Below, piece by piece: positions 9,687-24,150 of a stretch of DNA of 32,000 nt. Position 1 is the first letter of the stretch, and each line of letters starts with the position of its first letter. The notes below the pieces were generated by a model. The model was not told the DNA's origin and did no database searches. It was given only the letters and a program-made list of their open reading frames with translations. Both the position numbers and the translations under genes were made by a program. Origin of the DNA: Deltaproteobacteria bacterium (lineage in GTDB: Bacteria; Bdellovibrionota; JACOXK01); the NCBI GenBank assembly GCA_016182335.1, contig JACOXK010000058.1:1-32000 (forward strand), read 5' to 3'.

Positions 9687-11324
9687 TCAACGTAGGGTCG
9701 GATGATCCCTAAAAACACCGGGTTGCACCCACAATTGATCGCGCTGAATTTCCTCTAAATTTAACTGACCATTATGAAAAAGTGCTTTGAGACTTGTTAA
9801 AACTGCCTTTTCTGCAGCAACTATCTTCGATGGCGTCACTTTTCGCTTGAAATCTTCTTCAATATGAAGAGCGACATATTCAGCAATTTGAGGAGGAAGT
9901 TTAGAAATAATTAAGTTTTTATAAGCAGAGAGCTTTCCTAGAAGAACAGCGACAATGTCATCTCGTGAAAGTTGGCTTAAAAATAGAGTCAGGTCATTTT
10001 CTTCCAGAAGACTTACAAGATCAAGTGTTATAATGCTTGATTTTAATTTCATGCCAAGCGTTGTATCTGCTTTTAAAATATCGTCTGCAAGTTCGTCGGG
10101 TTTATCATGAGATTCAACTAAATTGATAAGTGCATTAAATCCGGATGTTTCGTACAGATTCAAACTTGTGAGTTGAGCAGCTCGGTGGGCCAAGCGAAAA
10201 CTTAAATACTTAAGCTCATTCCAAGGCAGTGTTTCTATTGTGGCCAGTTCCAAAGCGACTGATTTCTGATCACTATCTTTTAAATTTTTAAACACGTTAC
10301 TTCGTGTTTCAATATCGAGTTGTAAAAGAAGGAGCGCTTGGCATCGAATATCTTCACCTTTAACCAAGTGAGCTATTTTTGTTGGTTCTAAATTTTTAAG
10401 AAAATCAAAATTGGACTCAATAACTTGATTTTCTTTCAGAGACAACAAACTTTCAAGTTCTATTTCATGACGAAACTGTGTTCCTATGCGCTTTACATCG
10501 GATACGCTTAAGTGCTGCATTTTTGAAAACTCAGATGTGAGCTCCTCTGCAGAGTTATTATTAAGAACTCCCTTAAGCTCTGATCGAAGATGAGTAGGAA
10601 GTGTGATAAGGACTTGAAGTGCATGGTGTAAACCCTGCGGCGATGCTGCCCACCGTTTCAACACATTTTTTGCTGTGCTCAGATGAGAAGCAACGAGATC
10701 TGCATAATGCGCTGGGCTTTGAATTGTTAGAGAATCTCCAATCGATATCCCTTGAGGGATTTCCTGATATGAAGGCACGACAGTGGGGGAGGGTTGAGAT
10801 TCGTGTTTTAAAACTGATGGCAAAACTGTTTTTTTCCTTTGACGACGCATAAAATAGAAGATGCCCATAATAGCTGCAAGAGTGGACATAATAAGAAAAA
10901 TCAGTAAAAAATAACCTCTTAAGTTTGAGAATATAGTTGGGTGAGGCACGGCTACAAATGAGTAATTTAAATGAAGTGCTGATTGAAATGGTTGTGCTTG
11001 ATGTTCAATATATTTTTGAAGAAAATCCCTAGTTTTTTGTGGAAGTTTCTCATCAGCCAGAATATTAACATCAATACCAGAAATAACAGTAGATGTTTGT
11101 GCTGCACTACCAGATTCTTCAAATCCAGGTTCCACAATACTACGTTGAACTGTAGTTTTTGAAGAGGATTTGATGAATACATCTAAGCACAGCTGTGGAC
11201 AATGGAGTTTGAATAACTCAAGAATGACAGGTTTCAAAACGCTTTCAGGCGTTTGTCCTGCACTGAACAAAGTCGTCATCGAGAGACTCACTACTAATTG
11301 ACTTAAGAGAATGAGTTTTTTCAT
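9687..11324 (-). CDS. Membrane protein: signal peptide, extracytoplasmic domain, one TM segment and a cytoplasmic FliG-C-like domain
   Basis: N-terminal MKKLILLSQLVVSLSMTTLFSAG; TM GYFLLIFLIMSTLAAIMGIFYF followed by RRQRKK. C-terminus VSLLEENDLTLFLSQLSRDDIVAVLLGKLSAYKNLIISKLPPQIAEYVALHIEEDFKRKVTPSKIVAAEKAVLTSLKALFHNGQLNLEE resembles the FliG C-terminal pattern. Confidence 0.7.
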   Translation of the reverse strand: MKKLILLSQLVVSLSMTTLFSAGQTPESVLKPVILELFKLHCPQLCLDVFIKSSSKTTVQRSIVEPGFEESGSAAQTSTVISGIDVNILADEKLPQKTRDFLQKYIEHQAQPFQSALHLNYSFVAVPHPTIFSNLRGYFLLIFLIMSTLAAIMGIFYFMRRQRKKTVLPSVLKHESQPSPTVVPSYQEIPQGISIGDSLTIQSPAHYADLVASHLSTAKNVLKRWAASPQGLHHALQVLITLPTHLRSELKGVLNNNSAEELTSEFSKMQHLSVSDVKRIGTQFRHEIELESLLSLKENQVIESNFDFLKNLEPTKIAHLVKGEDIRCQALLLLQLDIETRSNVFKNLKDSDQKSVALELATIETLPWNELKYLSFRLAHRAAQLTSLNLYETSGFNALINLVESHDKPDELADDILKADTTLGMKLKSSIITLDLVSLLEENDLTLFLSQLSRDDIVAVLLGKLSAYKNLIISKLPPQIAEYVALHIEEDFKRKVTPSKIVAAEKAVLTSLKALFHNGQLNLEEIQRDQLWVQPGVFRDHPTLR

Positions 11325-11337
11325 AGAACCACCTTTT

Positions 11338-11982
11338 TTAATAAATTTTTAACGTTACCCTTCTGTTTATATTTCTGTATTCCTCAGCATCTGCAACTTC
11401 AGCTTTCTCTTCAAGTTTTTTAGGTCTCGTATGGGCAAATCCCCTTAATTGAATTCGATTTTCATCAATGCCGTGAAAACGCAAAAAATTAAGGAACTCC
11501 ATAGCCCTGTAGGCTGACAATTCCCAATTAGATGGAAATTTAAGTGTATGAATGGGTACATTATCTGTATGTCCCTCAACAATAAACGCCCATTTGTGAT
11601 CAATTGTTTTTAACTCCGAAACAAATGTCAAAATATGTGGCTTAGCCTCTTCCAAGAGGGCACTTTCTCCGGATTGAAATAAGAGAGAATGACTAAAATC
11701 AATTTCCAGAGACTCTTGTCCAATGCTTGTTGAAATCTTGGATTCCAAATGATTTGAGATGATAATAGAGTCAATCTGTTTTTTTAAATCGGCCAAAGAA
11801 TATTTAGGTTTTTTTTTGAAGTAATTCGTGAGCGATTCAAACCGATATGTGCTCATCACTGACATGGAGAGGAGAAATGCAAAGAAAACATAGAGATTTG
11901 TGATGAGATCTGAATAAGAAAGCAGCCATGGTGACTCATCATTCCGTGCAAACATGCTGTTTTGTACCAGTTCTTCAAGCAT
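11338..11982 (-). CDS. MotB-type stator protein (TM + OmpA/MotB peptidoglycan-binding domain)
   Basis: N-terminal WLLSYSDLITNLYVFFAFLLSMS, matching the MotB TM with conserved Asp. OmpA-like VEGHTDNVPI...NWELSAYRAMEFLNFL...RNINRRVTLKI. Confidence 0.9.
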   Translation of the reverse strand: MLEELVQNSMFARNDESPWLLSYSDLITNLYVFFAFLLSMSVMSTYRFESLTNYFKKKPKYSLADLKKQIDSIIISNHLESKISTSIGQESLEIDFSHSLLFQSGESALLEEAKPHILTFVSELKTIDHKWAFIVEGHTDNVPIHTLKFPSNWELSAYRAMEFLNFLRFHGIDENRIQLRGFAHTRPKKLEEKAEVADAEEYRNINRRVTLKIY

Positions 11983-12804
11983 TTAGATTTCCAAGCGGAT
12001 TGTCGTCGTCCCCATTTTTGGATGCGAAACAATTCGAGAGGAGCTTTCTGTGGCTGTTATGAAAGCAGCAAGATTTTCTTTTAATATCGGTCCATATACC
12101 TGGTTTTTAATAAGCTCTAAAGCTTCAATCATCATGGCATGAGATCTAGATTCCAGTTCCACATGATTGTTCACGTGACGAATGACTGGGAAGTAAAAAG
12201 CATAACTTGCAAGCAATCCGTACAAAGTCGTTAGCAACGCAAGCGCCATGCCAGCCCCAATCTGACTAAAATCGTCCATATTCTGTAACAGTGAAACCAA
12301 TCCTAACACTGTTCCCATCATGCCAAGAGCAGGTGTTATTTTTGACGAAAAATCAAACACCGAGATTTCTTTGAGGTCCTGAAGTCGCTTTGCATGCCAT
12401 TTATTTTTCAAAATACTTTTCAGTTCATCGGCATTATAATTTCCATTAAAAGTATGAATGCCTTCTCTTAAAAAGAGAGGCATATCTTGTGTGGGCGCAG
12501 CGATACGTCCACTTCGCTGATACTCTTTGGAACAATCCACAAGATGAGAAATGAGGCGTTGCTGTGATACTTTTTCAGGAGAAAAAAATACTTTAATGAG
12601 TCGACCCCAGGCCTTTAAAATATCTGAAAGTCCAAAGCTGTAGAGAACAATGAAAATGTGCCCTACAACTACAAATAAGAAGCTTGGTAGGTTAAACAAG
12701 CCTTTATATTCACTCGATCTTGATTGCATGATAAACAACAGGATCCACAAAAAACCGATAAGACCTATAAGGCTTGCGCATTTTCTCACCCACTGATAGT
12801 TCAT
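11983..12804 (-). CDS. MotA/TolQ/ExbB-family proton channel protein (MotA-like)
   Basis: Four hydrophobic segments; SSKITPALGMMGTVLGLVSLLQNMDDFSQIGAGMALALLTTLYGLLAS. Directly abuts the MotB-like gene. Confidence 0.88.
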   Translation of the reverse strand: MNYQWVRKCASLIGLIGFLWILLFIMQSRSSEYKGLFNLPSFLFVVVGHIFIVLYSFGLSDILKAWGRLIKVFFSPEKVSQQRLISHLVDCSKEYQRSGRIAAPTQDMPLFLREGIHTFNGNYNADELKSILKNKWHAKRLQDLKEISVFDFSSKITPALGMMGTVLGLVSLLQNMDDFSQIGAGMALALLTTLYGLLASYAFYFPVIRHVNNHVELESRSHAMMIEALELIKNQVYGPILKENLAAFITATESSSRIVSHPKMGTTTIRLEI

Positions 12805-13430
12805 GATTTTGTTTTTGGTGAAAGAGTTGTAGGTGAAGACGCAGGGAGGCGAGAAATAGCCTGACGAATAATAGTATTAGCAGGATCTTCTTTAAGAACC
12901 AAAGACCATGATTCTCTGGCTAAATCATACATTCCTACCTTGGATGCAACGGTCCCGCGCAAGGAGAGAAGCTTCGTATCGCTTGGATAGGATTCAACAA
13001 GGGATTCCAATGTTACGAGTGCTAGTTCATAGTCTTTTTTACGAAAATGCTCTTTTACTTTCGCCAAACCTAAGAGATAACTTTGTCTGGCTAAAGATTG
13101 GCCAGATAAGGCAACCACATCTTGACCTTGAATCTGAGAATTGTCGTCACCAGATGATGGTATAGTTTGTAACCCATCAGTGTGAGAACTTTTAAGCTCT
13201 GCAAGAGTGTAGCGCACTAAAGTCGATTCACTATTTTCTCCAAGTGCTATTTCAATAGCATTCAAACCGAAGGACCGGCGAATGGTAATGGGTGATTTCG
13301 ATGACTGAGCTGTGTCTATGGTAAATGGATTGGATATTTCAGGGGAAGAGTGTTTGGAAATTTTGCGCATGGAAGCACATCCAACAATAAGAGACAAACA
13401 GATAATGACAAAAAGTTTTTTTCTATTCAT
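12801..13430 (-). CDS. TPR-like lipoprotein
   Basis: Lipobox LSLIVGC at the N-terminus; TPR-like YELALVTLESLVESYPSDTKLLSLRGTVASKVGMYDLARESWSLVLKEDP. Overlaps the MotA-like start by 4 nt. Confidence 0.7.
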   Translation of the reverse strand: MNRKKLFVIICLSLIVGCASMRKISKHSSPEISNPFTIDTAQSSKSPITIRRSFGLNAIEIALGENSESTLVRYTLAELKSSHTDGLQTIPSSGDDNSQIQGQDVVALSGQSLARQSYLLGLAKVKEHFRKKDYELALVTLESLVESYPSDTKLLSLRGTVASKVGMYDLARESWSLVLKEDPANTIIRQAISRLPASSPTTLSPKTKS

Positions 13431-13433
13431 TGT

Positions 13434-14591
13434 TTACCACCTCATATTGATATTGAATGCAATATCTAAACAAAAACCAGAAACTTTTTTCGATTGTTTA
13501 TCAGACGAAAATTGTATTTGATTGCCAATGAGTTGAATCTTTTCAGAGCTCAGCATGGCATCTGACGGAAATAAGTAATTGATGTTGGCAGAAATTCCAA
13601 ATTTCTTTCCAATATCGAGCAAAAAACCTGGACCTAAAACAAAAGACTGATAGTTGTTTGTAAGAAGTGGGCCGCCGCCTACTGTTATATATTTTCTAAA
13701 TTTTTCTCCGCCCAGATTCATGAGGAGTTTTAACTCAAGAAGCCCCCCAGCATTGAGAAGAATGTCTTTATTGCTGGAATCTGAGAGTGGCTCAGTAAAT
13801 CCAGAGAGAATAATGCCAAAGTGATCAATAAACCCTCCCATGTACTCGAGTAGAGAGAAACTCACACTTGGATAATTCACATGATTTTCAAATCCAGGTA
13901 ATAGGAAAAAACCAGGGCTTACGGCGAGCCGATATTTAGCAAGGATGTTCACCGAGTCCGAAGGCCGTTTTGTGACAGAATCTTGTGATAGCAGCTGTCG
14001 CTCTGGATCGAGCGAAGAATATTTATCGCTCCAAATGACTTCTCCCTTAATAGCATCAAAAATGGCAACGCTCAAAACGATTTCATGTGGGGTATAATGG
14101 AATGTGCTTTCCAGGAAATAGCGAGTTCCCAAACTATGAGAGAGAGATTGCAATTCTTCATTTTTTTGCACACCCTGTTGCACAATAAGGTCATTAGCAT
14201 CCGTTGTGACAAGAGTGCGAAAGCAGCTCATACATTTGATAGATTTAATGGAGACTTTTTCAATGAGGGCCTGATCGATTCTATCTCGAAGAATATCGCG
14301 AAACTTAGGTTGGATATCACCCTGGAGATTGATTTTATACTGGCTTAATTTTTGAATACGTAAGTTTGAACTCGAAAGATCTGTAGCAAATCTCTCAACA
14401 AGAGAGTCCAGTACAGAGTAGAAATCAATTTTTCCATCAAGCGTGCTTGCATATTCCGCATTGACGTGATTTGAAAAAAACACAACACAGTTTAATCCAA
14501 GAAAAATAACGAGAAATCGCAGTAGAACAAAACGATTTTGCAACACAAAACGACCTTCACCCAACGCTAACTTTTTTTGATAAGATGTCAA
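13434..14591 (-). CDS. Secreted protein with CsgG/FlgO-like N-terminal domain and outer-membrane barrel-like C-terminal region
   Basis: Signal-like VLLRFLVIFLGLNCVVFFSNHVNA; LVERFATDLSSSNLRI...LSHSLGTRYFLESTFHYTPHEIVLSVAIFDAIKGEVIWSD; the Gly/aromatic-alternating C-terminal half resembles a beta-barrel. Confidence 0.55.
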   Translation of the reverse strand: MTSYQKKLALGEGRFVLQNRFVLLRFLVIFLGLNCVVFFSNHVNAEYASTLDGKIDFYSVLDSLVERFATDLSSSNLRIQKLSQYKINLQGDIQPKFRDILRDRIDQALIEKVSIKSIKCMSCFRTLVTTDANDLIVQQGVQKNEELQSLSHSLGTRYFLESTFHYTPHEIVLSVAIFDAIKGEVIWSDKYSSLDPERQLLSQDSVTKRPSDSVNILAKYRLAVSPGFFLLPGFENHVNYPSVSFSLLEYMGGFIDHFGIILSGFTEPLSDSSNKDILLNAGGLLELKLLMNLGGEKFRKYITVGGGPLLTNNYQSFVLGPGFLLDIGKKFGISANINYLFPSDAMLSSEKIQLIGNQIQFSSDKQSKKVSGFCLDIAFNINMRW

Positions 14592-14598
14592 CTTTCAT

Positions 14599-15639
14599 TC
14601 AGGGTAACAGTATGTGATAGCGGATATCCACTTGGTCACCAGCAGCCACATGAGACCTTTTGAGGAAAAACAACTCCTGTGTTGACTCGTTATAATGCCA
14701 CTCACTTGGGTTTGCTTTAAGACCATTAAGATAAACCTCAATAGAACCGCGTTGTGCAGCATAGGTTAAAACTTTACGAGTCATATGCTCAAAAAGTATT
14801 TGTATTATTTTATTTATGACTTGTTTTGAATCTTGCAAGAGATCACACAATTCAAGACTTATGCCAGAAGTTTGACTTACAAATTCAGCAAGAGTTGTTG
14901 CTCGTCGATACTCCAAGTTATTGCATTGATCACTTCCCTCTTTGAAAATGAGGGCAATAGGTTGGAACAGTGCTTTTGATTTTAATGTCTGCATAGAGGC
15001 TACAATGTGATCGACTGGAGTTGTTCCTTCGTCATCCGCGTTAGATATAAAAATTGGAAAGAAATGGGTATTTCCTTCTCGAAGGAATCCGCTTTTCATG
15101 AGGGTTACCAACTTCTCAAGTGGGAAATTTGATGCTTCTCCCCCAGTAAAGTTTAAAGCTCCAAGAGTTTCTGATAATTTATTGAGTCCACTCACCGTGA
15201 AAGCGTTATTCGCAAAAATATCCTCTCCCCATGGAGTACTATCATGGGATGTTATCAACCGAAGTTTGAAAGAAAGCTTTGGTCGAAGATGGTGATATTC
15301 TGGAGGGTCCATGAGAGAGGCTAAGAGAAGATGACTTGATTCTTTGAGGGCTTGAATAAAAGGTGACATTTTTTTCTTGGCATGAAGAATAAATGCTATA
15401 TCAAGGTTTCCCTGTGGCACTTCGTGAATGAAACCATCCAACCACAGCTGTGGCAGGGATGTGGCGGGAGGTTCTAATAATGGGGGATTGTCAGGTTCGT
15501 AATGTGGGCTAACAGGCGCAGGTAACGGTTTCTCTTTTTGCTTAGGTGCAATAAATTCAGGAGCTCCACAATGAAGAAAGAGTGTTGCCACAAGAAGGGA
15601 TATAAATTTATGGATTTTGAGGATCTTGTTTGACACCAT
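14599..15639 (-). CDS. Lipoprotein, VWA-like with degenerate metal site (paralog 1)
   Basis: Start at MVSNKILKIHKFISLLVATLFLHC (lipobox). LDIAFILHAKKKMSPF sits at the position of the MIDAS DxSxS in the neighbours. C-terminal domain SEWHYNESTQELFFLKRSHVAAGDQVDIRYH is shared with the paralogs. The track ORF opens at 15777. Confidence 0.6.
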   Translation of the reverse strand: MVSNKILKIHKFISLLVATLFLHCGAPEFIAPKQKEKPLPAPVSPHYEPDNPPLLEPPATSLPQLWLDGFIHEVPQGNLDIAFILHAKKKMSPFIQALKESSHLLLASLMDPPEYHHLRPKLSFKLRLITSHDSTPWGEDIFANNAFTVSGLNKLSETLGALNFTGGEASNFPLEKLVTLMKSGFLREGNTHFFPIFISNADDEGTTPVDHIVASMQTLKSKALFQPIALIFKEGSDQCNNLEYRRATTLAEFVSQTSGISLELCDLLQDSKQVINKIIQILFEHMTRKVLTYAAQRGSIEVYLNGLKANPSEWHYNESTQELFFLKRSHVAAGDQVDIRYHILLP

Positions 15640-16846
15640 ACAACACTGTAATTTTTCCACCTTGCGGCACTTTGGGTTTGTTCGTAAGGATGATTTCATT
15701 TTTTTGAGTATCATAAGTAAAGTCACGTCCCATAAGCAGTGGATAATAATTATAAAGAACTTTAAAAGACTTGCCATCGAAAGTATGGGGAATTTTTTTA
15801 AGAATAATTCTTTTTGTGTAGGATAAAGAGAGTTGTGCTACATCACTCAATGTATTCTTTTTCAAAAGCTCACATAAATCCAGTCGATGTCCATAGAAAT
15901 GTTGGTGACTGAGTTGTTCTAATTTATCTGATGTCTTGGTTAAACTGTAAGGACAAGTCTGAATATTCATGCGAAATAGCGCTGTAAATACGCTTAAGTA
16001 CGGTGGTCTATAAATTTTATGAATTTGTGACAAAAAATGAGAGGTTGCTATGTCATGAGAAAGCTCGTCCGAACTTATGAAGAAAAATACACTGAGCGCA
16101 TCTTCCTCTCGAAAATCGGCAGAGTTATGTAATAACTCCAGTGTTTTAGAATAAGAAAGAATATGAGGTTGGCCTTGATATCCAAGCTGTGACATGAATT
16201 GAGGAAAGACGGCAAAATCTCGTGCCGTACTTATAAAGTTTTTCCCACTCACAGAAATGAGACGTGCTTCATCAGAAGGCATGAATCCTATCTTATATTG
16301 AAGATGAGAGAGATTGTTTGATAAAAATTCTGGAGCAAATTTTGTGCTTGCTAAGACAAGATCAGAGTGAATGTCTTCCATAGGTTCCGAGGTATCAACG
16401 ACAAAAAGTATTGAGAGTTTTCCAGAAGGAAGGCCGTAATAAAAATCTTCCTCATAAAGTTGAAAATCTGGAGGAGTTGGCCCACCAGGTTGTGTAGGAT
16501 CTGGAAGAGGAATGGGCACTGGATCAGGATTGCCTCCTCCCCCGCCCCCTGGAGTTCCACCTTCACCGGGATTGGTACCTGGTGCGCTCCCCCCTCCTGA
16601 ACCGCCATTAGGAGGAGATCCCGGAGTGCCACCGCCTCCTGGGTTGGTGTCAGGTGAACCATTACTATCTCCACCAGAACCAGCGTCTGGAGGGACAATT
16701 TTTCCATCCGGTGTTTTATTTTCAACATAGAGATTAAAGACTCGGCGAGAGCTTGAACCGCAAGATAAATTGAAAACTAACGGTGCAACAATGGCTAATG
16801 GAACTATTACTGACTTCACGGTTGAAGGTAACCTTAAGTCATTCAT
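15608..16846 (-). CDS. Lipoprotein, VWA-like domain with Gly/Pro-rich linker (paralog 2)
   Basis: Lipobox LVFNLSC; linker of G/P/N residues; LSILFVVDTSEPMEDIHSDLVLAS; C-terminal DFTYDTQKNEIILTNKPKVPQGGKITVLY. GTG at 16819 is an alternative start. Confidence 0.7.
   Translation of the reverse strand: MNDLRLPSTVKSVIVPLAIVAPLVFNLSCGSSSRRVFNLYVENKTPDGKIVPPDAGSGGDSNGSPDTNPGGGGTPGSPPNGGSGGGSAPGTNPGEGGTPGGGGGGNPDPVPIPLPDPTQPGGPTPPDFQLYEEDFYYGLPSGKLSILFVVDTSEPMEDIHSDLVLASTKFAPEFLSNNLSHLQYKIGFMPSDEARLISVSGKNFISTARDFAVFPQFMSQLGYQGQPHILSYSKTLELLHNSADFREEDALSVFFFISSDELSHDIATSHFLSQIHKIYRPPYLSVFTALFRMNIQTCPYSLTKTSDKLEQLSHQHFYGHRLDLCELLKKNTLSDVAQLSLSYTKRIILKKIPHTFDGKSFKVLYNYYPLLMGRDFTYDTQKNEIILTNKPKVPQGGKITVLYGVKQDPQNP
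16481..16694 (-). repeat. Low-complexity segment encoding a Gly/Pro/Asn-rich linker
   Basis: Encodes PDAGSGGDSNGSPDTNPGGGGTPGSPPNGGSGGGSAPGTNPGEGGTPGGGGGGNPDPVP... Confidence 0.85.
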
Positions 16847-16858
16847 TCAGGTAATTTT

Positions 16859-16887
16859 ATTACAAAAGCTCTTCGTATCATTGTCAA
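16859..16887 (-). promoter_or_regulatory. Putative sigma70-type promoter for the minus-strand operon
   Basis: On the minus strand: TTGACA (16887-16882), 17-nt spacer, TGTAAT (16864-16859), just upstream of the 16846 start. Confidence 0.5.
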
Positions 16888-16891
16888 ATAA

Positions 16892-16919
16892 TTGGAGCTT
16901 TGTTAGATCATAATATAAT
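16892..16919 (+). promoter_or_regulatory. Putative sigma70-type promoter for the plus-strand operon
   Basis: TTGGAG (16892-16897), 16-nt spacer, TATAAT (16914-16919), ahead of the GTG start at 16936. Confidence 0.45.
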
Positions 16920-16935
16920 TAGGTATCGTTGTTCA

Positions 16936-18012
16936 GTGAAAAAAATTATCATTTTAGTTGCTTTTGCATCTCTGACATCGTGCGAAAAAACGGGTCTTAA
17001 GTACGAAACTTCTTTAGAGGATGATCCTTCACGTATTGTTTTTGTTGATCCTCGAATTATTTCCTCCCATAAACCTCCATGGATGCAACCGTATAGACGC
17101 GTCATTGAGCGTGATACTGCGCCTGTAAATCAACCGCCTTCGCGCGGAATTTTTACTAACGTGGTGGATAAGTATGAGAAGAAAAAAAATCATGAAGAGG
17201 CTGATATTTTATGGGTTATTGATAATTCGTGCAGCATGGCTGAAGAACGTGACAAAGTTTCACAAAATCTCGATGCTTTTATGAGGGACTTTAAATTGAG
17301 TCATGTTGATTTTCATATGGGTGTTATTTCAACACACACCCATGATGCTCTTTTTTATGGAGCCCCACCCGTGCTTCTTTCAAATGATCCAGAATTAGAG
17401 CGCAGATTTTCAGAACGTGTTCGGATGCCGCAAGTATGCGGTTTTTCTGCTGCTTTGCATGCTGCCCATTTGGCGCTGAGCGAGCCGCGAATTTCTGGAT
17501 ATAACAAAGATTTTTTACGATCAGAAGCGCATCTCATTATTATTATCATTTCTGACGCAGATGAAGACTATAAAATGAGCAGCTCTGAATATCTTAGTTT
17601 TTTCCAGTCACTTAAAGCAAGTGAACCGCATAAAGTCGTCATTAACTCCATCGTTGGAGATTCTCCGAGTGGTTGTTCATCTGCTGGCGGGAATGCAGAA
17701 CCTGGGTTGCAATACATTGAATTAACACAAAGTACTCGAGGTTTTTTTGAAATCATTTGCAGTAACAACTTTAAAGAAAGCATGAACAATATTGGCCGTA
17801 ATCTCGATAAATATATCAACTCTTATCCACTGACTCATATTCCTTCAATTCGATATCCTCTTGTTGTTACAATCAATGGTCGTGTCGTGGAGCGACACCC
17901 AATACATGGCTGGGTGTACAATGCCGAACTCAATCTTATTTTATTTGAGGGAGATATTAAACCTATTGTTGGAGATAAAATTGAAATCGCTTACCTTCAT
18001 GAAGAAAATTAG
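16936..18012 (+). CDS. Lipoprotein with VWA domain, intact MIDAS (paralog 3)
   Basis: GTG start gives VKKIIILVAFASLTSC (lipobox). ADILWVIDNSCSMAEERDKVSQNLDAF carries DxSxS; C-terminal HGWVYNAELNLILFEGDIKPIVGDKIEIAYLHEEN. The track ORF begins at TTG 16900. Confidence 0.82.
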   Translation: MKKIIILVAFASLTSCEKTGLKYETSLEDDPSRIVFVDPRIISSHKPPWMQPYRRVIERDTAPVNQPPSRGIFTNVVDKYEKKKNHEEADILWVIDNSCSMAEERDKVSQNLDAFMRDFKLSHVDFHMGVISTHTHDALFYGAPPVLLSNDPELERRFSERVRMPQVCGFSAALHAAHLALSEPRISGYNKDFLRSEAHLIIIIISDADEDYKMSSSEYLSFFQSLKASEPHKVVINSIVGDSPSGCSSAGGNAEPGLQYIELTQSTRGFFEIICSNNFKESMNNIGRNLDKYINSYPLTHIPSIRYPLVVTINGRVVERHPIHGWVYNAELNLILFEGDIKPIVGDKIEIAYLHEEN

Positions 18013-19033
18013 TCTTCTTATAAGCTTATTTCTAGTGGGCTTGACCTCTCAAGGATTAGCACTGGTTTGGTGGGGCGAAGAAATAACCTCACTTAAATAC
18101 ATTATGCCCATCCAATATTTTGTACGAAATGAAGATGTTTTTTACATGGGGCTTCAAAACTTTGGTATTGATCGTGTCATTTACAATAATTACAAACTTT
18201 CTCGTGATAAAGTTTTTAGATTCTCTGGTATCATGGACCCTTCTGTGAAATTAAACTTCCTTCTTAAAGGCGATATGCTCATAGTTGGAGGCATTTACGA
18301 CGGTTTTTTAGCACTCGATACAAAATCGGATTATCCATCACCCACTTCAAAGAGACATGATCTTGTTTTTAAGCCCAATGAAAATACAATTGTTTATTCT
18401 TCTCTTCTCAAATCCCTCTTATGGAAAGGTCAACTTGTACTTCTTACGGCTGATCAGGTTATTCTGGGTAGTCTGCAGAACCCACTTAAGTTTAACGTCA
18501 ATGCGAGCGTTGGTTTAGCGCCAAATTATCCTTTGCAACCCAATGATTGGAAAGAATTTTGGGCTACCGATATGGCGCTCTATGGCAATTATTTGTACGT
18601 TCTTCTTGCGCATGAGAAAACTCCGCAGATTGCATACCTTAACCTTTCACAGCCACTGGAAAGTCTTAAAGTAAATTATGTTCCCCTCAATGTTTCAGAA
18701 TATTATCTTAAATCCTTAGCGGTTAGTGATAGTAGATTATATATAACTCAGAATAAGACACTTCATAGTTTTGTCATTGATGAAGAAGGCATGCCGACCG
18801 TGGAGTGGTCGCATACCCAGAAGCACTTCATAGAAACTGTAACTACGTTTTCGATGGGTATTATTCTCTCGTTCTTTGAGGCTGGACTTGCGTTCTTTGA
18901 AAATCAAGACCTTACAAAAGAACAGGCCATTATTTTTCCTCCAAAAACTTGGGAGCAGGTTGAGGTTGTGGATAATCTTTTGTTTGGTTCAGCAGGAGAA
19001 GATGGTTTTTATGTATATCAAAAATATAATTAA
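17999..19033 (+). CDS. Secreted protein of unknown function, beta-propeller-like
   Basis: Internal ATG at 17999 gives MKKISLLISLFLVGLTSQGLALVWW (signal peptide) and overlaps the preceding stop by 14 nt. Repeated hydrophobic strands such as KGDMLIVGGIYDGFLALD, YGNYLYVLLAHE, SDSRLYITQNKTLHSFVI. Confidence 0.6.
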   Translation: MKKISLLISLFLVGLTSQGLALVWWGEEITSLKYIMPIQYFVRNEDVFYMGLQNFGIDRVIYNNYKLSRDKVFRFSGIMDPSVKLNFLLKGDMLIVGGIYDGFLALDTKSDYPSPTSKRHDLVFKPNENTIVYSSLLKSLLWKGQLVLLTADQVILGSLQNPLKFNVNASVGLAPNYPLQPNDWKEFWATDMALYGNYLYVLLAHEKTPQIAYLNLSQPLESLKVNYVPLNVSEYYLKSLAVSDSRLYITQNKTLHSFVIDEEGMPTVEWSHTQKHFIETVTTFSMGIILSFFEAGLAFFENQDLTKEQAIIFPPKTWEQVEVVDNLLFGSAGEDGFYVYQKYN

Positions 19034-19667
19034 GACATTGATATTTTTCTCTTTGTGGGGATGGACTGGAACTATCTTGGGTGAGTCGCCTTCGCAAAGC
19101 ACTTGGCTGGATTACGAAATCCGTCTTAAAGCCGTGTACAACCAAAAATATGAGCACCATCATCGACATGAGCTCTCCACTTTTTCATCACTGTATTTTA
19201 GAAATGATCTTAATTTATCATATGGTTTTGGAGCTGATTATGCCTATCATTTCACTCCTACTTTAAGTTGGGAAGCGGCTCATTTTCTTTACTTAAATCA
19301 AGTTGAGACAATACTGCGCCAGGATATAAGAAATAAAACAGGTTTGATACCGGATGTAGAAGAAAATGAATTCTTTGTTACTTCTTCAATCATGTTTCAT
19401 CCTGCGTACGGCAAATTGGCTTTCTTTGGAAGGCACATTGCGTATTTTGATCTCTATGTTGTTGCGGGTGGAGGCATTCGAAAACTCTTGAACCTTTCTC
19501 AACTTAAATCTGCTTTTTCGTTTGGTGCAGGTTTCAGATGCTATCTGAGTCACAAACTTACTCTCAAGATTGATGCCAGAGACATGTTGTTTCAGGAAGA
19601 ACATCAATCCGGTGCATCTATTATTCATTCTTTTACACCTGTTTTAGGATTGAGTTTACTTCTATGA
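19011..19667 (+). CDS. Outer-membrane beta-barrel domain protein (myxobacterial/Bdellovibrio-type)
   Basis: Signal MYIKNIIKTLIFFSLWGWTGTILG, then RLKAVYNQKYEHHHRHELSTFSS...LSYGFGADYAYHFTPTLSWEAAHFLYL...FDLYVVAGGGI, resembling the delta-proteobacterial outer-membrane barrel family. The track ORF opens at 18876. Confidence 0.7.
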   Translation: MYIKNIIKTLIFFSLWGWTGTILGESPSQSTWLDYEIRLKAVYNQKYEHHHRHELSTFSSLYFRNDLNLSYGFGADYAYHFTPTLSWEAAHFLYLNQVETILRQDIRNKTGLIPDVEENEFFVTSSIMFHPAYGKLAFFGRHIAYFDLYVVAGGGIRKLLNLSQLKSAFSFGAGFRCYLSHKLTLKIDARDMLFQEEHQSGASIIHSFTPVLGLSLLL

Positions 19668-20734
19668 AGTTAAAACTCTGTGTCATTACATATTTCATAT
19701 TTACTTTTGCCAATGCAGACTTTCCCCGAATGGCGGATGCATGGCGTGCCTATGCTAACCAAGATTACATTCAATCTTTGCAACAGTTGTACAGGGTCCG
19801 CAGCATTGCTCAAGAAAGAGTGCTTGCTGAAACCTTTTATTTGGAAGGACTTTTGGCTTACCGATTGGGTTATAGTTTGAGGTTGGCAGCCATTTATCAG
19901 ACTTATGAAGTGCAGTTCATGCATAAGCTCTCTTCATTGCCAAATAATATAAAAAAAGATGTTTGCTTGTATTGGGTGAGGCTCTCAAGTCTTCTAGCAG
20001 ATGTTTATAAAAGTATGCTGGTGGTACAATCTGTAGAATTGTTCCAGTCTTTGTCTTCGACTGAAAGTGCACTTCGCACGCCTTCTGGATCTGGGGCTTA
20101 CACGTGGCCTCTGATACTAGCTACTGAGAAAGAAGTACAGGAGGTATGGTTGGATGAATTGGGTGCTGATACCATAATCACTATTTCTGAAAAGAAAGAA
20201 AAGGGGGAGAGTCTTACTCCTGAAATTATTTTTGTTCGTTTAAGCGATGCAGTTTCACGCTCTCTTGTTTTTTATGAACAAAAAATTCTAGAGAAGGATT
20301 TTTTTTATAATCGCCTGCGTTTGCTCTTTTTAGATTATAAATTGGATAGAGGAGAAGGAGGAGAGGAGTTTTTGGTTGTATCTCAAAAAGCTTATCTGAA
20401 ACTCTATGGAGAAAGTCGGTTTTCAATGCTCCAGTCACTCATTCAACTTCGGCTGAGTAGAATCAACTCTAAACTTAAGACATTAAGGGCCATGAGTTTT
20501 AAGAAAAGTGTTACTGCAGTGACAAGCCAAAACTACAAAACTGATCAACCCAATATAGAGCATGTTATTGTTCTAGGCATGATTGAAACAAAGCCTATTC
20601 GCAAGGAAGCAGTGAGGCAAGGGGTGTCTTCTTTTTTCTCGGCTGATCCTGTACCCTATATACCTGGTGCCGGTCCGGAGAGTTGGAATGAGAAAATTGC
20701 AGAGTCCATCCATGACAAAAAAATCTCAGATTGA
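19664..20734 (+). CDS. Secreted/periplasmic helical repeat (TPR-like) protein
   Basis: Signal MKLKLCVITYFIFTFANA; helical repeats WRAYANQDYIQSLQQLYRVRSIAQERVLAETFYLEGLLAYRLGY; overlaps the previous gene by 4 nt. Confidence 0.55.
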   Translation: MKLKLCVITYFIFTFANADFPRMADAWRAYANQDYIQSLQQLYRVRSIAQERVLAETFYLEGLLAYRLGYSLRLAAIYQTYEVQFMHKLSSLPNNIKKDVCLYWVRLSSLLADVYKSMLVVQSVELFQSLSSTESALRTPSGSGAYTWPLILATEKEVQEVWLDELGADTIITISEKKEKGESLTPEIIFVRLSDAVSRSLVFYEQKILEKDFFYNRLRLLFLDYKLDRGEGGEEFLVVSQKAYLKLYGESRFSMLQSLIQLRLSRINSKLKTLRAMSFKKSVTAVTSQNYKTDQPNIEHVIVLGMIETKPIRKEAVRQGVSSFFSADPVPYIPGAGPESWNEKIAESIHDKKISD

Positions 20735-21539
20735 GTTTCGGCTGCTTGTCTTCAACAAGTCTTCTCTGATTAAAAAACTATCTTTTCGAACGGAAGAACT
20801 CATTCTTGGTTCGATAGCTCAATCTCAGGTTAATTTAACTAAGGCAGATGGTACTGTTCTTTTAGAAGGTAGATTCTACTGGAAGTCGAGGTACGTTCTG
20901 ATTTTTGAAAAACACTTCATGCAATCAGAAGAAATACAAGCAACTTTACTCCAGAATCACAATGCAAGTGCTGCCACGTTTGAGTATCAGAATGATGAGA
21001 TGGTAATACAGGTGAGATCTTTGCTCATAGGAGAACCGCCTGATTCTCTGTCAATACGACCTACCTTCACTCAAAATCTGTCTGTTCCAACGATAAAAAA
21101 ACAAGTTCATAAATCAGTATTTGTGACTGCAATGATAGTTCTTGTTGTGCAACTGAGCTTAATAGTAAAACTCAATGAGCGCAAAAACGTGAGATTAGAG
21201 GGGCATGAACAACAAATCTCTAAAGTTTTAGCCCCCACGGTCAACAAACCGTTCATGCCACGTATCCCAGGGCCTAAGCATTATGAAAAAATTATCTTAA
21301 AGAACAAAAAGGATATCGAGTTTTGTCAGAAAAACTTCGATTTTGAGGATGGCCCCGTTCAGTTCAAAGTGCTTATTAATCCTATGGGTGGAGTCTTTTC
21401 TGTCGATGTTTTGTCTTCCACACTTGGTGTGGAAATAATGGAGTGCTTGAATGCGAGAATTAAATCATGGTTGTTTCCCCCTATTGAAAATATTTCAAAA
21501 ACATTATTTTTTGCTGTGAATTTTAAAAAGGAATCTTGA
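20712..21539 (+). CDS. Single-TM protein with AgmX/PglI (GltG/GltJ)-type C-terminal domain and possible degenerate FHA-like N-terminus
   Basis: TM SVFVTAMIVLVVQLSLIV; C-terminus DIEFCQKNFDFEDGPVQFKVLINPMGGVFSVDVLSSTLGVEIMECLNARIKSWLFPPIEN matches the AgmX/TonB-like pattern. Start MTKKSQIEFRLLVFN at 20712; the track ORF opens at 20667. Confidence 0.7.
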   Translation: MTKKSQIEFRLLVFNKSSLIKKLSFRTEELILGSIAQSQVNLTKADGTVLLEGRFYWKSRYVLIFEKHFMQSEEIQATLLQNHNASAATFEYQNDEMVIQVRSLLIGEPPDSLSIRPTFTQNLSVPTIKKQVHKSVFVTAMIVLVVQLSLIVKLNERKNVRLEGHEQQISKVLAPTVNKPFMPRIPGPKHYEKIILKNKKDIEFCQKNFDFEDGPVQFKVLINPMGGVFSVDVLSSTLGVEIMECLNARIKSWLFPPIENISKTLFFAVNFKKES

Positions 21540-21542
21540 CCA

Positions 21543-21632
21543 TTCAATGGATGGATTGGTGAAGATCACGAAGGATTCCTTTAATTTCATCGTTTTCGGG
21601 ATCGAATTGAAGGGATGACTCAAATTCTTTGA
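21543..21632. repeat. 90-bp direct repeat, copy B, within the intact TPR gene 3' end
   Basis: 88/90 identical to 9558-9647; the two differences are synonymous in the TPR reading frame (GAG/GAA and CCT/CCC). Confidence 0.97.
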
Positions 21633-22041
21633 TGGCTTGATTGAGCCAACCCTTTTCGAAATAAATTCTTCCTAAATTAATATGGGGGTAGTGCCTGTAG
21701 GCGTACCTCTTCGATAGTTTTGCCATTTCAAGCCAAGCCATAGCTTCATCCATTTTTCCAAGCCTCATAAGATAGGAGCCTATATCATTGTAGGGATTCC
21801 CAAAATCTGGATCAATAGCAATGGCTTTTTTGCATAATTCAATGGCTTCGCTCAGTTGCTCTTTCATAGACAGCATCCAACCCCAGTAGGTATAGGCCTC
21901 TGGAGTTGGTTCATGACCAATGGATTGTTTGAAACATGAAATCGCAGAATCAATATCTTTTTGGGCCGCATAAGAGCAACCGCTATCCACAAGTTGCAGT
22001 GCCAAGAGAAGCTTCTTATCTAAAATCTTTCTCTCATTCAC
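21544..22041 (-). CDS. Tetratricopeptide repeat protein
   Basis: TPR motifs: PEAYTYWGWMLSMKEQLSEAIELCKKAIAIDPDFGNPYNDIGSYLMRLGKMDEAMAWLEMA and HINLGRIYFEKGWLNQAIKEFESSLQFDPEN. Confidence 0.85.
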   Translation of the reverse strand: MNERKILDKKLLLALQLVDSGCSYAAQKDIDSAISCFKQSIGHEPTPEAYTYWGWMLSMKEQLSEAIELCKKAIAIDPDFGNPYNDIGSYLMRLGKMDEAMAWLEMAKLSKRYAYRHYPHINLGRIYFEKGWLNQAIKEFESSLQFDPENDEIKGILRDLHQSIH

Positions 22042-22044
22042 TTC

Positions 22045-23778
22045 CTATTCCACATATCCATAGCTATCGATATCAAATCCATACGTTGAAACGATTTGAT
22101 CTGCTGCAAGCACAATTTCGATTGTATCTCCATCGACTTCATAGGTCCAAAAAGGCGTTTGAACCCCATCGTAGAAGTCTTCAACTTCCCCTTTCGCATT
22201 TTTAATATAAACAAAATCATATCCCGTTTCAGTTTCAAACTTACTAAAATGAACTCTCATTTTTTTTGCACCCGAATGAGTGATTTTATAGGTATATTCT
22301 TTACTATTGTCGTAATCGTGGGGAGTTGAAATGAGGTGCGTTACATTCTTAAAAAGACTTGGATCGGTAGGGGTACTTTTGGGTGCTTCAAAGTTTGTGA
22401 GTGCATAAAACGCATTGGCTCTTCCATGAGAAATTTTTCTTCGAAGAATTTTAATCTCTTCGGAAGATGTATAAAGTATTTTTTTCAAATCCTGCATTGC
22501 AAGATTCGGATGAGAAGACAGAAGAAGTGCAATCATCCCAGAAATATGCGGCGTGGCCATAGACGTTCCGCTCATGTAACCATAATTGTTCCCAGGTATC
22601 GAACTATAGATAGAAACCCCAGGAGCTGCAATATCGACAGTTGTTTTTCCGTAATTTGAAAATTTTGCTAGCTGATCTTGATTATCCGTTGCTGCAACTG
22701 AGATGACATTCTCAAATTCGTAATTGGAAGGATAGTGAGGGACGACATCGTTATTACCTGCATCATTTCCAGCGGCGGCCACAAAATAAATGCCAGCATC
22801 GGATGCAGACTTGATAGCATCAGCAAGGGCTTGTGAAAATCCCCCCCCACCCCAGCTATTGCTCATCACGTGAACTCCTAAAGTATGCGCATATTCAATA
22901 GCCTTGACTGCATCTTCAAGGGTGCCGGAGCCTCCTGAGCTTAAAAATTTTACTGGGATAAGAGATACACGCCAGGTTACTCCTAGTATACCCACTTCAT
23001 TATTCCCATATGCGCCAATTGTTCCAGCTACGTGGGTTCCATGGCTGTGGTCATCCATGGCGTCATTGGAATTTGAAACAAAATTCCAACCCCTGACGTC
23101 ATCAATAAATCCATTACCATCATTATCAATTCCATCAGTTTCTTTAAAGGCCTGTGCACCTTTATCGTTCGTATATTCGCCTAATTCACCAGGATTTTGA
23201 TATATATTGTTGACTAAGTCTTCATGAGTATAATCGATACCTGTGTCGATGACTGCAACTTTAATTGCTCGACTTCCTATTTCCTGGGTCCAAGCTTGAA
23301 GGGCATCGATATCACTCCCGGGTTTTCCTATTTGGCCGCTTACATCCGTCTGTCCGACATTGTTTAGACCCCAGTTTTTTTCAAACTCAGGGTCTGAAAT
23401 CATGGTTGATTGATCGATTCCCATGATTTGTCTCACTCTGCGTGGAGAGAATGAGGACATATCAATTGAATAAATATAGTTAGGTTCTGCATATTCTACC
23501 TGAGGAAGGTTTCGAATCTTATTTAAAAGAGAGTTGAGTGAGATTTGAGGAGAAAACTTGAGGATGAATAAGTTGAGTTTGAGACTTACCGTTGCAATTT
23601 CCCTAAAACTAAATGCCTTCAGATGGTCTACTGTTGCGCCAGGCTTGAGTTTAACAATGACTTCACCTGGAACATATTTAATTTTGGGTTCCGCCTTCTT
23701 AGAATGGGTTTGGGACTGATAAACCCCCATTCCAATGGCAAAGCTGAGGAATACAACTGCACATAACAACTTTTTCAT
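22045..23778 (-). CDS. Secreted S8 (subtilisin-like) serine protease with C-terminal CUB-like domain
   Basis: Triad motifs VAVIDTGIDYTHEDL, HGTHVAGTIGA, SGTSMATPHISGM; propeptide VPGEVIVKLKPGA. Start MKKLLCAVVFLSFAIGMGV at 23778 after SD GGGGGAGAT; the track ORF opens at 23820. Confidence 0.93.
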   Translation of the reverse strand: MKKLLCAVVFLSFAIGMGVYQSQTHSKKAEPKIKYVPGEVIVKLKPGATVDHLKAFSFREIATVSLKLNLFILKFSPQISLNSLLNKIRNLPQVEYAEPNYIYSIDMSSFSPRRVRQIMGIDQSTMISDPEFEKNWGLNNVGQTDVSGQIGKPGSDIDALQAWTQEIGSRAIKVAVIDTGIDYTHEDLVNNIYQNPGELGEYTNDKGAQAFKETDGIDNDGNGFIDDVRGWNFVSNSNDAMDDHSHGTHVAGTIGAYGNNEVGILGVTWRVSLIPVKFLSSGGSGTLEDAVKAIEYAHTLGVHVMSNSWGGGGFSQALADAIKSASDAGIYFVAAAGNDAGNNDVVPHYPSNYEFENVISVAATDNQDQLAKFSNYGKTTVDIAAPGVSIYSSIPGNNYGYMSGTSMATPHISGMIALLLSSHPNLAMQDLKKILYTSSEEIKILRRKISHGRANAFYALTNFEAPKSTPTDPSLFKNVTHLISTPHDYDNSKEYTYKITHSGAKKMRVHFSKFETETGYDFVYIKNAKGEVEDFYDGVQTPFWTYEVDGDTIEIVLAADQIVSTYGFDIDSYGYVE

Positions 23779-24150
23779 AATAATCTCCCCCTTAGGAACA
23801 CCACACCAGTTCCCTTTCATTTGAGAGCCGTTAAAAAAAATTGCTTGATGAGAAGTGAATATCCGCCTTATAATTTTAACACTAGCATATGATGAGAGAG
23901 TGTCGCAAGTATATTCAGTTTTAAGTTGTTTAAAGTTTTTGCAATAGTGTTTTAATTTTAGTTAATAGGTATAAGAAAATATACAATATATATTAAATTA
24001 ATATATCAAATGAGTTATAGAATTAATGAAAATAATTTTCATTTATCGTTTATAATTTAGACAAATTATATTTTTATTAAACATGGTGAGGCGCTATGAA
24101 AAATGTTGATTTATTTACATTATTGTAGTTATTTGGACATTCTTGCTTTT

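Follow-up and report, generated by a model that had tools for sequence, protein, structure and literature searches.

A flagellar-class stator, a FliF-FliG fusion and integrin-like adhesins encoded together suggest a rotor-stator motor in a flagellum-less configuration

Can the rotor-stator core of the flagellum serve a machine other than the flagellum? To our knowledge, flagellar-class stators and FliG have been assumed to exist only for spinning flagella. The question is raised by a divergent gene block at positions 9687-21539 of a 32,000-nucleotide stretch of DNA, hereafter the window (contig JACOXK010000058.1 of the Deltaproteobacteria bacterium assembly GCA_016182335.1; Bdellovibrionota, JACOXK01). 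A description made from the letters alone, without database searches, which we call the sequence-only reading, had presented this block as an apparently undescribed, MotAB-powered envelope machine resembling both FliG and the Glt/Agm gliding apparatus. Having followed it up, we are confident of the identities of its parts. As a whole, the block might encode a rotor-stator motor of flagellar type that is independent of the flagellum and joined to a platform of surface adhesins, an interpretation to which we give about an even chance. Below, we consider the parts, their recurrence in other genomes, and the uses to which they might be put.

The FliF-FliG fusion and its stator

The block holds 12 open reading frames (ORFs), seven on the minus strand and five on the plus strand (Table 1), all of them where the sequence-only reading had placed them. 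The products of all 12 have orthologs in one other assembly (L027) and those of eight in a second, end-truncated one (L001), at 27-67% identity, and this conservation indicates that the ORFs are real genes. With starts refined against these orthologs and the NCBI-called product P0003 (GTG start at 16936), the genes of the minus-strand set, taken from 16846 to 9687, are separated by gaps of -32, 7, 3, -4, 0 and 13 bp, and those of the plus-strand set, taken from 16936 to 21539, overlap by 14, 32, 4 and 23 bp. The near-abutting and overlapping genes that had been seen to diverge from a region of roughly 90 bp are thus two packed operons on either side of a short spacer. Filament, rod, export and FliM/FliN genes are absent from the 32-kb window, within which the earlier observation that stator, rotor-like and outer-membrane parts are encoded without filament, rod or export genes holds.

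The central component is a protein of 545 residues. Its N-terminal part comprises a signal peptide (residues 1-22) and a small alpha-beta-beta-alpha-beta domain (26-124) with conserved Cys42 and Cys46; these are followed by a transmembrane (TM) helix (~137-160), the basic stretch RRQRKK, a disordered linker (164-201), a helix resembling FliF's C-terminal tail (~204-226, ..VLKRW..) and helical domains like those of FliG N, M and C, which extend to residue 531. The conserved Cys pair, together with RRQRKK right after the TM helix, places the small domain in the periplasm and the FliG-like part in the cytoplasm. Pfam recognizes FliG_C (40.5 bits), FliG_N (32.2 bits) and FliG_M (31.8 bits), all exceeding their cut-offs, while the score against the FliG equivalog TIGR00207 is 34.7 bits and does not reach the cut-off of 226.7. 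An AlphaFold2 model computed from a 21-sequence alignment, with a predicted local distance difference test score (pLDDT) of 77.9, shows the same topology: residues 204-531 are all-helical, and residues 26-124 (block pLDDT 62-93) form the alpha-beta-beta-alpha-beta unit. This order of elements is that of the ring-building motif (RBM) of FliF, SctJ and SpoIIIAG. In Foldseek searches, the helical region retrieves full-length FliG (3hjl) over 327 columns (E 1.9e-9), along with FliG of the Salmonella C-ring structures, and the N-terminal domain weakly retrieves PrgK (E 0.04), MxiJ (E 0.15) and FliF (E 0.09-0.17). The FliG fold and the membrane anchor foreseen in the sequence-only reading are therefore confirmed by structure prediction, and its label of a TM-anchored FliG-C-like protein proved too narrow, as the protein has a full FliG N/M/C and a periplasmic ring-building domain in addition.

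The protein belongs to a large family. An exhaustive HMMER search over 1.84 billion cluster representatives gave 318 matches at E <= 1e-3, the best of which are proteins of 580-970 residues, not ordinary FliG of 335 residues. Among the best 148 of the 318 matches, 120 reach a length of 450 residues or more, and in 119 of these 120 an internal TM helix precedes the FliG part, so that the fusion architecture is predicted for no fewer than 119 sequence clusters. Two periplasmic types dominate, namely a Cys-pair/GFE type (39 clusters), which takes in the window protein and two-repeat proteins of Bdellovibrionota, and an ‘RGD..F’ type (57 clusters). A hidden Markov model of the first 330 residues of 12 long fusions, nine of them of the RGD..F type, aligns to residues 234-550 of E. 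coli FliF (36 bits; E 2.5e-13 as a single comparison), covering the end of RBM3 (..VAVVVN..EKRGDSLNVVNSPF), TM2 and the C-terminal FliG-binding tail (DPRVVALVIRQW). The proteins of the window, L001 and L027, which we refer to as the window clade, are joined to the RGD..F subfamily by hhalign through their residues 80-239 (probability 89.8%, E 1.7e-6), a stretch spanning the last elements of the RBM, the TM helix and the ‘VLKRW’ helix. The most fitting reading of the 545-residue protein is that of a naturally occurring fusion, with the C-terminal half of FliF joined to FliG. Other searches were less productive: a word-index homolog search with the fusion returned a single relative, and the same search with the 21-sequence profile only the query; a genome scan with the window protein and metagenome scans with the window-clade fusion and with the 344-residue protein of the plus-strand operon found nothing.

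The E-ring proteins FlgY, FlbB and MotE, which are small and have a periplasmic head resembling MgtE_N and the FliG ARM domain (PMC13023049), were considered as an alternative type and rejected: in the fusion, the FliG-like part comes after the TM helix and RRQRKK, which makes it cytoplasmic, and FliG_C is contained in it.

The only described precedent that we found is the FliF-FliG fusion of Chlamydiaceae (Bergeron 2016, PMC4768692), in which a shortened FliF periplasmic region with RBMs and TM is likewise joined to a cytoplasmic FliG-like part in the absence of a complete flagellum (PMC4768692). The chlamydial protein differs in its length of ~330 residues, in having both FliF TM helices and in its FliG-like part, which is an M-like region only (Bergeron 2016, PMC4768692); no MotAB partner has been reported for it, and it has been proposed to meet the injectisome (PMC4768692). 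In contrast, the FliG of the present family is complete, torque domain included, and the family has a MotAB dedicated to it. A literature search on Bd0141-0145, on FliG-like or paralogous proteins and on FliF-FliG fusions outside flagella brought up the Chlamydia case only, and the searchable literature yielded no account of a MotAB-linked FliF-FliG fusion module, in keeping with the suggestion that the system is undescribed.

The two adjoining stator genes also encode what had been proposed, a MotA-like and a MotB-like protein. MotB carries the channel aspartate, Asp25, within SYSDLIT at the start of its TM helix, and matches MotB_plug (40.3 bits, cut-off 24) and OmpA (42.3 bits, cut-off 27.2) in Pfam; in NCBIfam it scores highest, with 103-117 bits, against flagellar MotD, MotB and MotS (MotD 117 against a cut-off of 283). 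MotA has four TM helices and a cytoplasmic loop of ~100 residues and matches PF01618 at 67.8 bits. Its closest solved relative is Vibrio PomA (8bri, E 4e-25), and NCBIfam gives PomA, MotA and MotP 88-118 bits versus 18.9 for TolQ; the cut-offs of the named-stator equivalogs are not reached (PomA 118 bits versus 341). The plug, the OmpA-type domain and the large MotA cytoplasmic loop are marks of the flagellar (FIT) class, not of Exb/Tol (Puente-Lelievre et al., PMC12505986). Going by their sequences, MotA and MotB are a PomA/MotA-class ion-driven stator predicted to be able to anchor to peptidoglycan. Membership in the Zorya defense system was also considered and rejected, PADLOC giving only a generic MotB-ZorB cross-match and no ZorA, ZorC or ZorD, with a MotA of 273 residues.

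Charged residues were compared for signs of a rotor-stator contact. With E. coli FliG numbering checked on the K-12 sequence, the Bdellovibrionota fusions keep the equivalents of the charged FliG torque-helix residues K264, R281, D288/D289 and R297, and the corresponding MotA proteins keep the KK pair and the acidic residue in the loop. The window-clade fusions have L/I/A, Q and T/A/K at three basic positions and keep the acidic cluster as EED, DPE or EDD (L, Q, T and EED in the window itself), Q being the equivalent of R281. Their MotA proteins have lost the equivalents of PomA E96/E97 (P-T or S-T) and keep a basic residue at the position of PomA K89, so that the other charge pair is retained on both partners. 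This loss of one charge pair on both sides would be compatible with a cognate interface. Of EHPQR, the FliM-binding motif, the fusions all retain just the Glu (the window has EDIR, Bdellovibrionota ES.T and the Elusimicrobiota locus L026 EPVT), and, since no fliM or fliN lies nearby either, a switch complex appears unlikely.

In sum of parts, the module resembles the flagellar core of FliF, FliG and MotAB/PomAB in several ways. Its stator is homologous and has the plug, the channel Asp and the OmpA domain; FliG N/M/C is there with the torque-helix region; the RBM is of FliF type and is followed by a putative TM2 and FliG-binding tail; and a charge interface is predicted where the MotA loop would meet FliG_C. 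It departs from that core in several respects. FliF and FliG are one polypeptide, and, unlike flagellar FliG, the fusion is not a soluble protein. The window protein has one RBM and one TM helix, and the Bdellovibrionota proteins have two RBMs; the export-gate housing of FliF, with its two TM helices, RBM1-3 and beta-collar, is absent, RBM1/RBM2 being missing, and the EHPQR site for FliM is lost. FliM/N, rod, hook, filament and export genes do not lie nearby, and the NCBIfam scores given above for FliG and PomA fall far under the flagellar equivalog cut-offs.

A putative motor module recurring apart from flagellar genes

The sequence-only reading is also borne out by co-occurrence across genomes: the same core, made up of a TPR protein, the fusion and both stator subunits and usually accompanied by the 385-residue protein of Table 1, recurs in 22 other loci, comprising 19 of Bdellovibrionota, one of Elusimicrobiota and two unclassified ones, and the full set of 12 genes and eight of them are found in L027 and L001, respectively. 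The 19 loci came from a pattern scan of one genome per species, in which all were in Bdellovibrionota-type assemblies; they include Bacteriovoracaceae, Oligoflexia, Bdellovibrionales, a metagenome-assembled genome (MAG) related to Bdellovibrio sp. ZAP7, and Bacteriovorax stolpii. In 18 of the 19, the order is 385-residue protein, TPR lipoprotein, fusion, MotA and MotB, with a cyclic-nucleotide-binding protein inserted after the fusion in eight; the contig of the nineteenth (L011) stops at the fusion gene. The Elusimicrobiota MAG (L026) has fusion, a 357-residue protein, TPR protein, MotA and MotB, and a 5-kb contig (L028) has two response regulators, TPR, fusion and a barrel-like protein. On a 2.17-Mb contig (L029), TPR, fusion, MotA and MotB come directly before Bat-like MoxR AAA, DUF58, DUF4381 and VWA genes (L029:10496-13573), so that the motor is found associated with VWA proteins a second time, independently of the window. 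MotA and MotB adjoin the fusion in all 18 Bdellovibrionota loci that extend far enough and also in L026, L027 and L029. The conserved neighbors of the module are housekeeping genes (leuS, an SLT transglycosylase gene, prs, pth, trmFO and xerC). No flagellar gene was found among the annotated neighbors of the module loci.

Three further genes accompany the module in these loci. The cyclic-nucleotide-binding protein, of ~170 residues (PF00027, E 1.6e-24; L012:12226-12717), lies between the fusion and motA in eight of the 19, and its insertion suggests second-messenger control of the module. A conserved lipoprotein that has a Pro-rich tail and matches nothing in Pfam is encoded divergently to the module in 15 of the 19 (L016:7274-8023, minus strand); the window lacks a counterpart of it. 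In seven loci, motB is followed by the gene for an SLT lytic transglycosylase containing TPR-like repeats (L016:14287-15987), an arrangement that may be synteny with prs and pth. In Myxococcus, the lytic transglycosylase AgmT links gliding complexes to peptidoglycan.

Two members of the core are candidates for a scaffold. The TPR lipoprotein has its lipobox, as had been claimed, while the TPR matches of the window protein (residues 118-195 in Pfam) are sub-threshold; it also weakly matches YbgF and the spirochaete collar protein FlcA. Its orthologs precede the fusion or stator genes in 19 of 19 Bdellovibrionota loci, in L027 and in L029, and a TPR protein takes the same position in L026 and L028. 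The 385-residue protein, conserved in 18 Bdellovibrionota loci and L027 and weakly matched in L026 (E 7e-5), has a conserved N-terminal domain with CxxC and a C-terminal half ending in an aromatic residue. Among 17 members of its family, the weak Pfam matches are DUF3575 (5/17), FlgO (1/17, E 0.009) and OMP_b-brl (1/17), and a profile of the family found no match among sequences of the Protein Data Bank. It is probably an outer-membrane barrel with a periplasmic domain, and the CsgG/FlgO-like label given to it earlier is unproven. Scaffolds of polar flagella, such as Vibrio FlgO/FlgP/FlgT, Campylobacter PflA/PflB and alpha-proteobacterial MotC/MotK, offer a parallel, in that the stator genes are accompanied by those for an outer-membrane-associated protein and a TPR (lipo)protein, and one member of the 385-residue family weakly matches FlgO; the window proteins give no significant sequence match to these scaffolds, and a scaffold role would be by analogy.

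The strongest competing explanation is that the module is an accessory of a conventional flagellum encoded elsewhere, either with the fusion and MotAB acting as a stator reservoir, docking site or regulator, or with the fusion inserting in or beside the MS/C-ring. MotA and MotB are clearly of the flagellar class, Bdellovibrionota are flagellated and have one to four motAB pairs (PMC11323537), and the cyclic-nucleotide-binding gene between fusion and MotA in eight loci fits a regulatory device. In length, the module pair matches motAB1 of B. bacteriovorus HD100, whose three motAB pairs span 1553 (motAB1), 1844 (motAB2) and 1793 bp (motAB3), against 1567 bp for the module pair of L024; that the module stator is HD100 motAB1, possibly Bd0144/Bd0145, is a guess from gene-pair length alone. 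All three MotAB pairs of B. bacteriovorus reportedly contribute to swimming, which would favor an accessory role if the length-based mapping holds. According to a preprint, however, epibiotic relatives lack motAB1 and motAB2, motAB3 being the universal pair (bioRxiv 10.1101/2025.02.19.638989), a distribution which, on the same condition, speaks against a flagellar accessory and hints at a role tied to periplasmic invasion. Further, a rotor-type partner of its own, with a ring-building domain and a FliF tail, is needless for a reservoir; the FliM-binding EHPQR is gone; the module is never beside flagellar genes in the loci examined; and that of the window is co-operonic with adhesin genes. We consider an accessory role unlikely.

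A possible route from the motor to the surface

How might a free-standing motor of this kind work? We propose that the fusion would oligomerize into a small, MS-ring-like ring in the inner membrane, and that the peptidoglycan-anchored MotAB would turn this ring via its FliG_C face as ions flow. The TPR lipoprotein and the 385-residue outer-membrane protein would scaffold the stators in the periplasm, like the accessory rings of polar flagella. Because the FliM-binding motif, the RBM1/RBM2 export-gate housing and the rod are all missing, the output is not expected to be a filament and would stay inside the envelope.

An energizer of the Tol-Pal or TonB kind would make different use of the same genes, the fusion being a non-rotating transducer that pulls or remodels outer-membrane and peptidoglycan partners; outer-membrane tethering, surface exposure of lipoproteins or a function at the division site, all without sustained rotation, are possible roles. 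The parts list does parallel Tol-Pal, with a 5:2 motor, an OmpA-like anchor, a TPR protein (weakly of YbgF type), a TonB-C-like protein and outer-membrane proteins, and both the SLT transglycosylase after MotB in seven loci and the location of the block, ~3 kb from the ftsQAZ cluster, fit such a function. Tol, Ton and Agl motors, however, engage their partner through a TM helix. What the partner offers to the cytoplasmic loop of MotA here is a FliG torque domain, in the manner of rotary motors. The score of MotA for PomA against that for TolQ and the ring-building motifs, which argue for a ring, point the same way, and we judge an energizer of this sort to be quite improbable.

The adhesin half of the block is headed by a lipoprotein encoded at 16936-18012, whose AlphaFold2 model (pLDDT 83.9, predicted template modeling score 0.74) retrieves integrin beta I-like plus hybrid-domain headpieces in Foldseek (E 1e-10), and the SpaC pilus adhesin too. 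Its metal-ion-dependent adhesion site (MIDAS) is complete and conserved (D108-x-S110-x-S112, T145, D219), and the earlier identification of a MIDAS-bearing VWA lipoprotein is upheld by this DxSxS..T..D site and the integrin-like model. The profile NF052240 (‘MIDAS family adhesin’) matches it weakly, with 40-48 bits over the MIDAS region against a cut-off of 700. It is comparable to Bdellovibrio Bd0875, also a lipoprotein with an integrin-like VWA domain and MIDAS (Tyson 2024, PMC11003981) and linked to it by this weak NF052240 match; the score far under the cut-off sets it apart from Bd0875, which has not been reported with a MotAB/FliG module (PMC11003981). The two VWA-like lipoproteins of the minus strand are indeed its distant paralogs, with MIDAS degraded or lost: that at 14599-15639 is 46% identical to its L001 ortholog, and that at 15608-16846 has DTSEP at the MIDAS (DxSET in the orthologs) and is 40% identical to its L001 and L027 orthologs. 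The predicted outer-membrane barrel was equally well chosen, as the protein scores 99.5 bits against TIGR04565 (cut-off 60) and its L001 ortholog 114. The last plus-strand gene encodes a protein consisting of a cytoplasmic N-terminal domain, a TM helix, a Pro-rich linker and a putative C-terminal AgmX/PglI (TonB-C-like) domain; this topology agrees with the AgmX/PglI type assigned to it earlier, and the domain match is weak, NF033768 giving 25.6 bits (E 1e-5) in the window and 38.4 in the L001 ortholog, both below the cut-off of 40. The matches of its tail to the C-termini of GltG and GltJ are weak as well (22-26 bits versus cut-offs of 450-650).

The adhesin half stands beside the motor in three genomes only (the window, L001 and L027), in two arrangements. 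The window has a single abutting operon that takes in two VWA genes along with the five motor genes, with gaps of 7 and -32 bp at the VWA genes. In L027, all 12 genes are present, and the motor half is turned round with respect to the adhesin half: the 385-residue protein, TPR, MotA, MotB and the fusion are followed by two leftward VWA genes and then by the rightward VWA, propeller-like, barrel, TPR-like, small and AgmX genes. L001, at a contig end, has the L027 order from the fusion onward, and the divergent adhesin core is preserved on a 3.7-kb contig (L031). That the adjacency outlasts rearrangement argues for a functional link between the halves in this lineage, as far as gene order can indicate. 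Elsewhere, two homologs of the MIDAS lipoprotein (33-36% identity) come right after ExbB-ExbD-ExbD and near a VIT/VWA protein (L002:8390-12664, and also L003), by which the adhesin family appears to lie beside another class of 5:2 motor as well. That the motor operon and the VWA/barrel/AgmX operon are unrelated neighbors, adjacent by chance or shared regulation, would agree with the motor loci that have no adhesin half (19 in Bdellovibrionota, L026 and L029) and with the MIDAS-lipoprotein homologs in unrelated contexts (L004, L005 and L006), but it is very unlikely given that the halves are adjacent in three genomes of 36-67% identity despite the inversion of one half and that two VWA genes of the window are joined into the motor operon.

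If the motor does drive the adhesins in this lineage, its output would pass to the TonB/GltG-like inner-membrane protein, the periplasmic proteins, the barrel and the three CglB-like VWA lipoproteins, with the result that adhesins would be moved, exposed or loaded for gliding, surface adhesion or prey contact. A parallel for such a route is the Myxococcus Agl motor, which acts on the Glt outer-membrane platform and CglB (PMC9946355). There, too, an ion-driven 5:2 motor is co-encoded with a TonB-C/AgmX-type protein, TPR proteins and barrels (Islam 2023, PMC9946355), and the proposed logic is that of force from the inner membrane to a surface adhesin (PMC9946355). The VWA/MIDAS outer-membrane lipoprotein appears to resemble CglB in architecture, by its lipobox, VWA fold, full MIDAS and C-terminal beta domain. 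The motor, by contrast, is a MotAB of the flagellar class and not AglQRS of the TolQR class, its partner is a FliF-FliG fusion, which Glt does not have, and no NCBIfam or Pfam match to GltC, GltD, GltE, GltF, GltI or GltK was found among the 12 products at E <= 0.1. The Glt/Agm-like character of the earlier description thus stands for the CglB-like VWA lipoprotein, the OMP_myx_plus barrel and the AgmX-type tail, and not for the motor and most Glt proteins; with the wrong motor class and most Glt proteins absent, identification as a true Agl-Glt cluster was rejected.

Several points weigh against a rotary motor joined to adhesins. The FliF-likeness of the window-clade N-terminal domain comes from predicted topology, weak Foldseek matches and transitive profile matches: the Foldseek matches of this domain (E 0.04-0.17) are interleaved with matches to OsmC, and a direct match of the window-clade N-terminal profile to E. 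coli FliF is not significant. Ring formation and rotation are themselves read out of sequence. The charge loss on both partners amounts to one event, seen in three sequences, and is sensitive to how they are aligned. The 5-kb contig of L028 carries no MotAB. The 19 Bdellovibrionota motor loci, L026 and L029 have no adhesin half nearby, and because the adhesin module is not beside the motor in the 19, the coupling of the two may be lineage-specific or non-existent. Finally, a link to swimming is possible if the module stator is motAB1, by the length-based mapping.

In its most specific form, our proposal is of a free-standing minimal rotary motor whose torque is used within the envelope and here drives integrin-like adhesins, and which is either a stripped descendant of the flagellum or a pre-flagellar relative; we advance it tentatively. 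More generally, the locus suggests that the flagellar rotor-stator principle is found in a new, flagellum-less configuration. If this is true, the rotor-stator core can function as an independent module without axial or export parts, which bears on the origin of the flagellar motor, namely whether rotor and stator formed a pair earlier than, or separately from, the type III export apparatus, and on the role of the ‘extra’ MotAB pairs of predatory bacteria. On our tentative proposal, the module would be a previously unrecognized engine of gliding, adhesion or prey invasion, widespread in Bdellovibrionota, Elusimicrobiota and other lineages, and the link to integrin-like adhesins suggests a new way of powering surface movement or prey attachment. 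As the module is present in assemblies of Bdellovibrio sp. and Bacteriovorax stolpii, and cultivable, genetically tractable relatives exist, this is directly testable.

Other genes of the block and its surroundings

Table 1. Genes of the block and the spacer between its operons, in window coordinates.
Feature	Position	Strand	Basis or remarks
FliF-FliG fusion, 545 aa	9687..11324	-	Pfam FliG_N/M/C, AlphaFold2 model, Foldseek, hhalign
MotB-type stator B subunit, 214 aa	11338..11982	-	MotB_plug, OmpA, TM 26-44
MotA/PomA-type stator A subunit, 273 aa	11983..12804	-	PF01618, PomA similarity
TPR lipoprotein, 209 aa	12801..13430	-	lipobox LIVGC, Ala at +2
385-aa secreted protein	13434..14591	-	signal peptide, N-terminal alpha/beta domain, beta-rich C-terminal half
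VWA-like lipoprotein paralog, 346 aa from Met47 of ORF	14599..15639	-	MIDAS lost (HAKKK)
VWA-like lipoprotein paralog, 412 aa	15608..16846	-	Gly/Pro-rich linker; MIDAS partial
Divergent intergenic spacer	16847..16935		89 bp, between two operons
MIDAS-bearing VWA/integrin-I-like lipoprotein, 358 aa	16936..18012	+	lipobox LTSC; C-terminal beta-sandwich
Secreted protein, 344 aa	17999..19033	+	orthologs in L001, L027
OMP_myx_plus outer-membrane beta-barrel, 221 aa	19002..19667	+	TIGR04565
Secreted protein, 356 aa	19664..20734	+	equals N-terminal half of longer orthologs
Bitopic inner-membrane AgmX/PglI-type protein, 275 aa	20712..21539	+	NF033768 weak, TM at ORF aa 151-169

Two secreted proteins of the plus-strand operon carried labels that our analysis leaves unproven. 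The 344-residue protein shares 41-45% identity with its L001 and L027 orthologs, and L031 has a gene at the corresponding position; for its description as propeller-like, we found a single weak beta-propeller match (E 0.022), in an ortholog. The 356-residue protein, described as TPR-like, corresponds to the N-terminal half of TPR-containing orthologs of 563 and 526 residues (27% identity over residues 14-268), and the TPR_2 match (28.8 bits) falls in the half which the window copy does not have. A small gene for 81-95 residues, which follows these longer orthologs in L001 and L027, is missing from the window.

Promoter-like hexamers are not commoner in the spacer than in shuffled sequence, and scans of the window for promoters and terminators stayed at background level. 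No tRNA genes or Rfam families were found in the window, and no compositional island is evident in it, the GC content being 0.34-0.43 throughout. The window is part of a groundwater-type MAG, and the NCBI locus tags in it are HYS98_03190 and HYS98_03225. The left flank of the block encodes housekeeping proteins, namely Lon, propionyl-CoA carboxylase subunits and methylmalonyl-CoA mutase; its right flank has genes for a TPR protein, an S8 protease and a glycosyltransferase, followed by ftsZ-ftsA-ftsQ-ddl-murB-murC. The first two of these right-hand genes (21544-23820), which are convergent to the end of the block, encode a TPR protein of 165 residues and a secreted S8 subtilase whose prodomain is of the fervidolysin type and whose C-terminal domain is CUB-like (22.5 bits).

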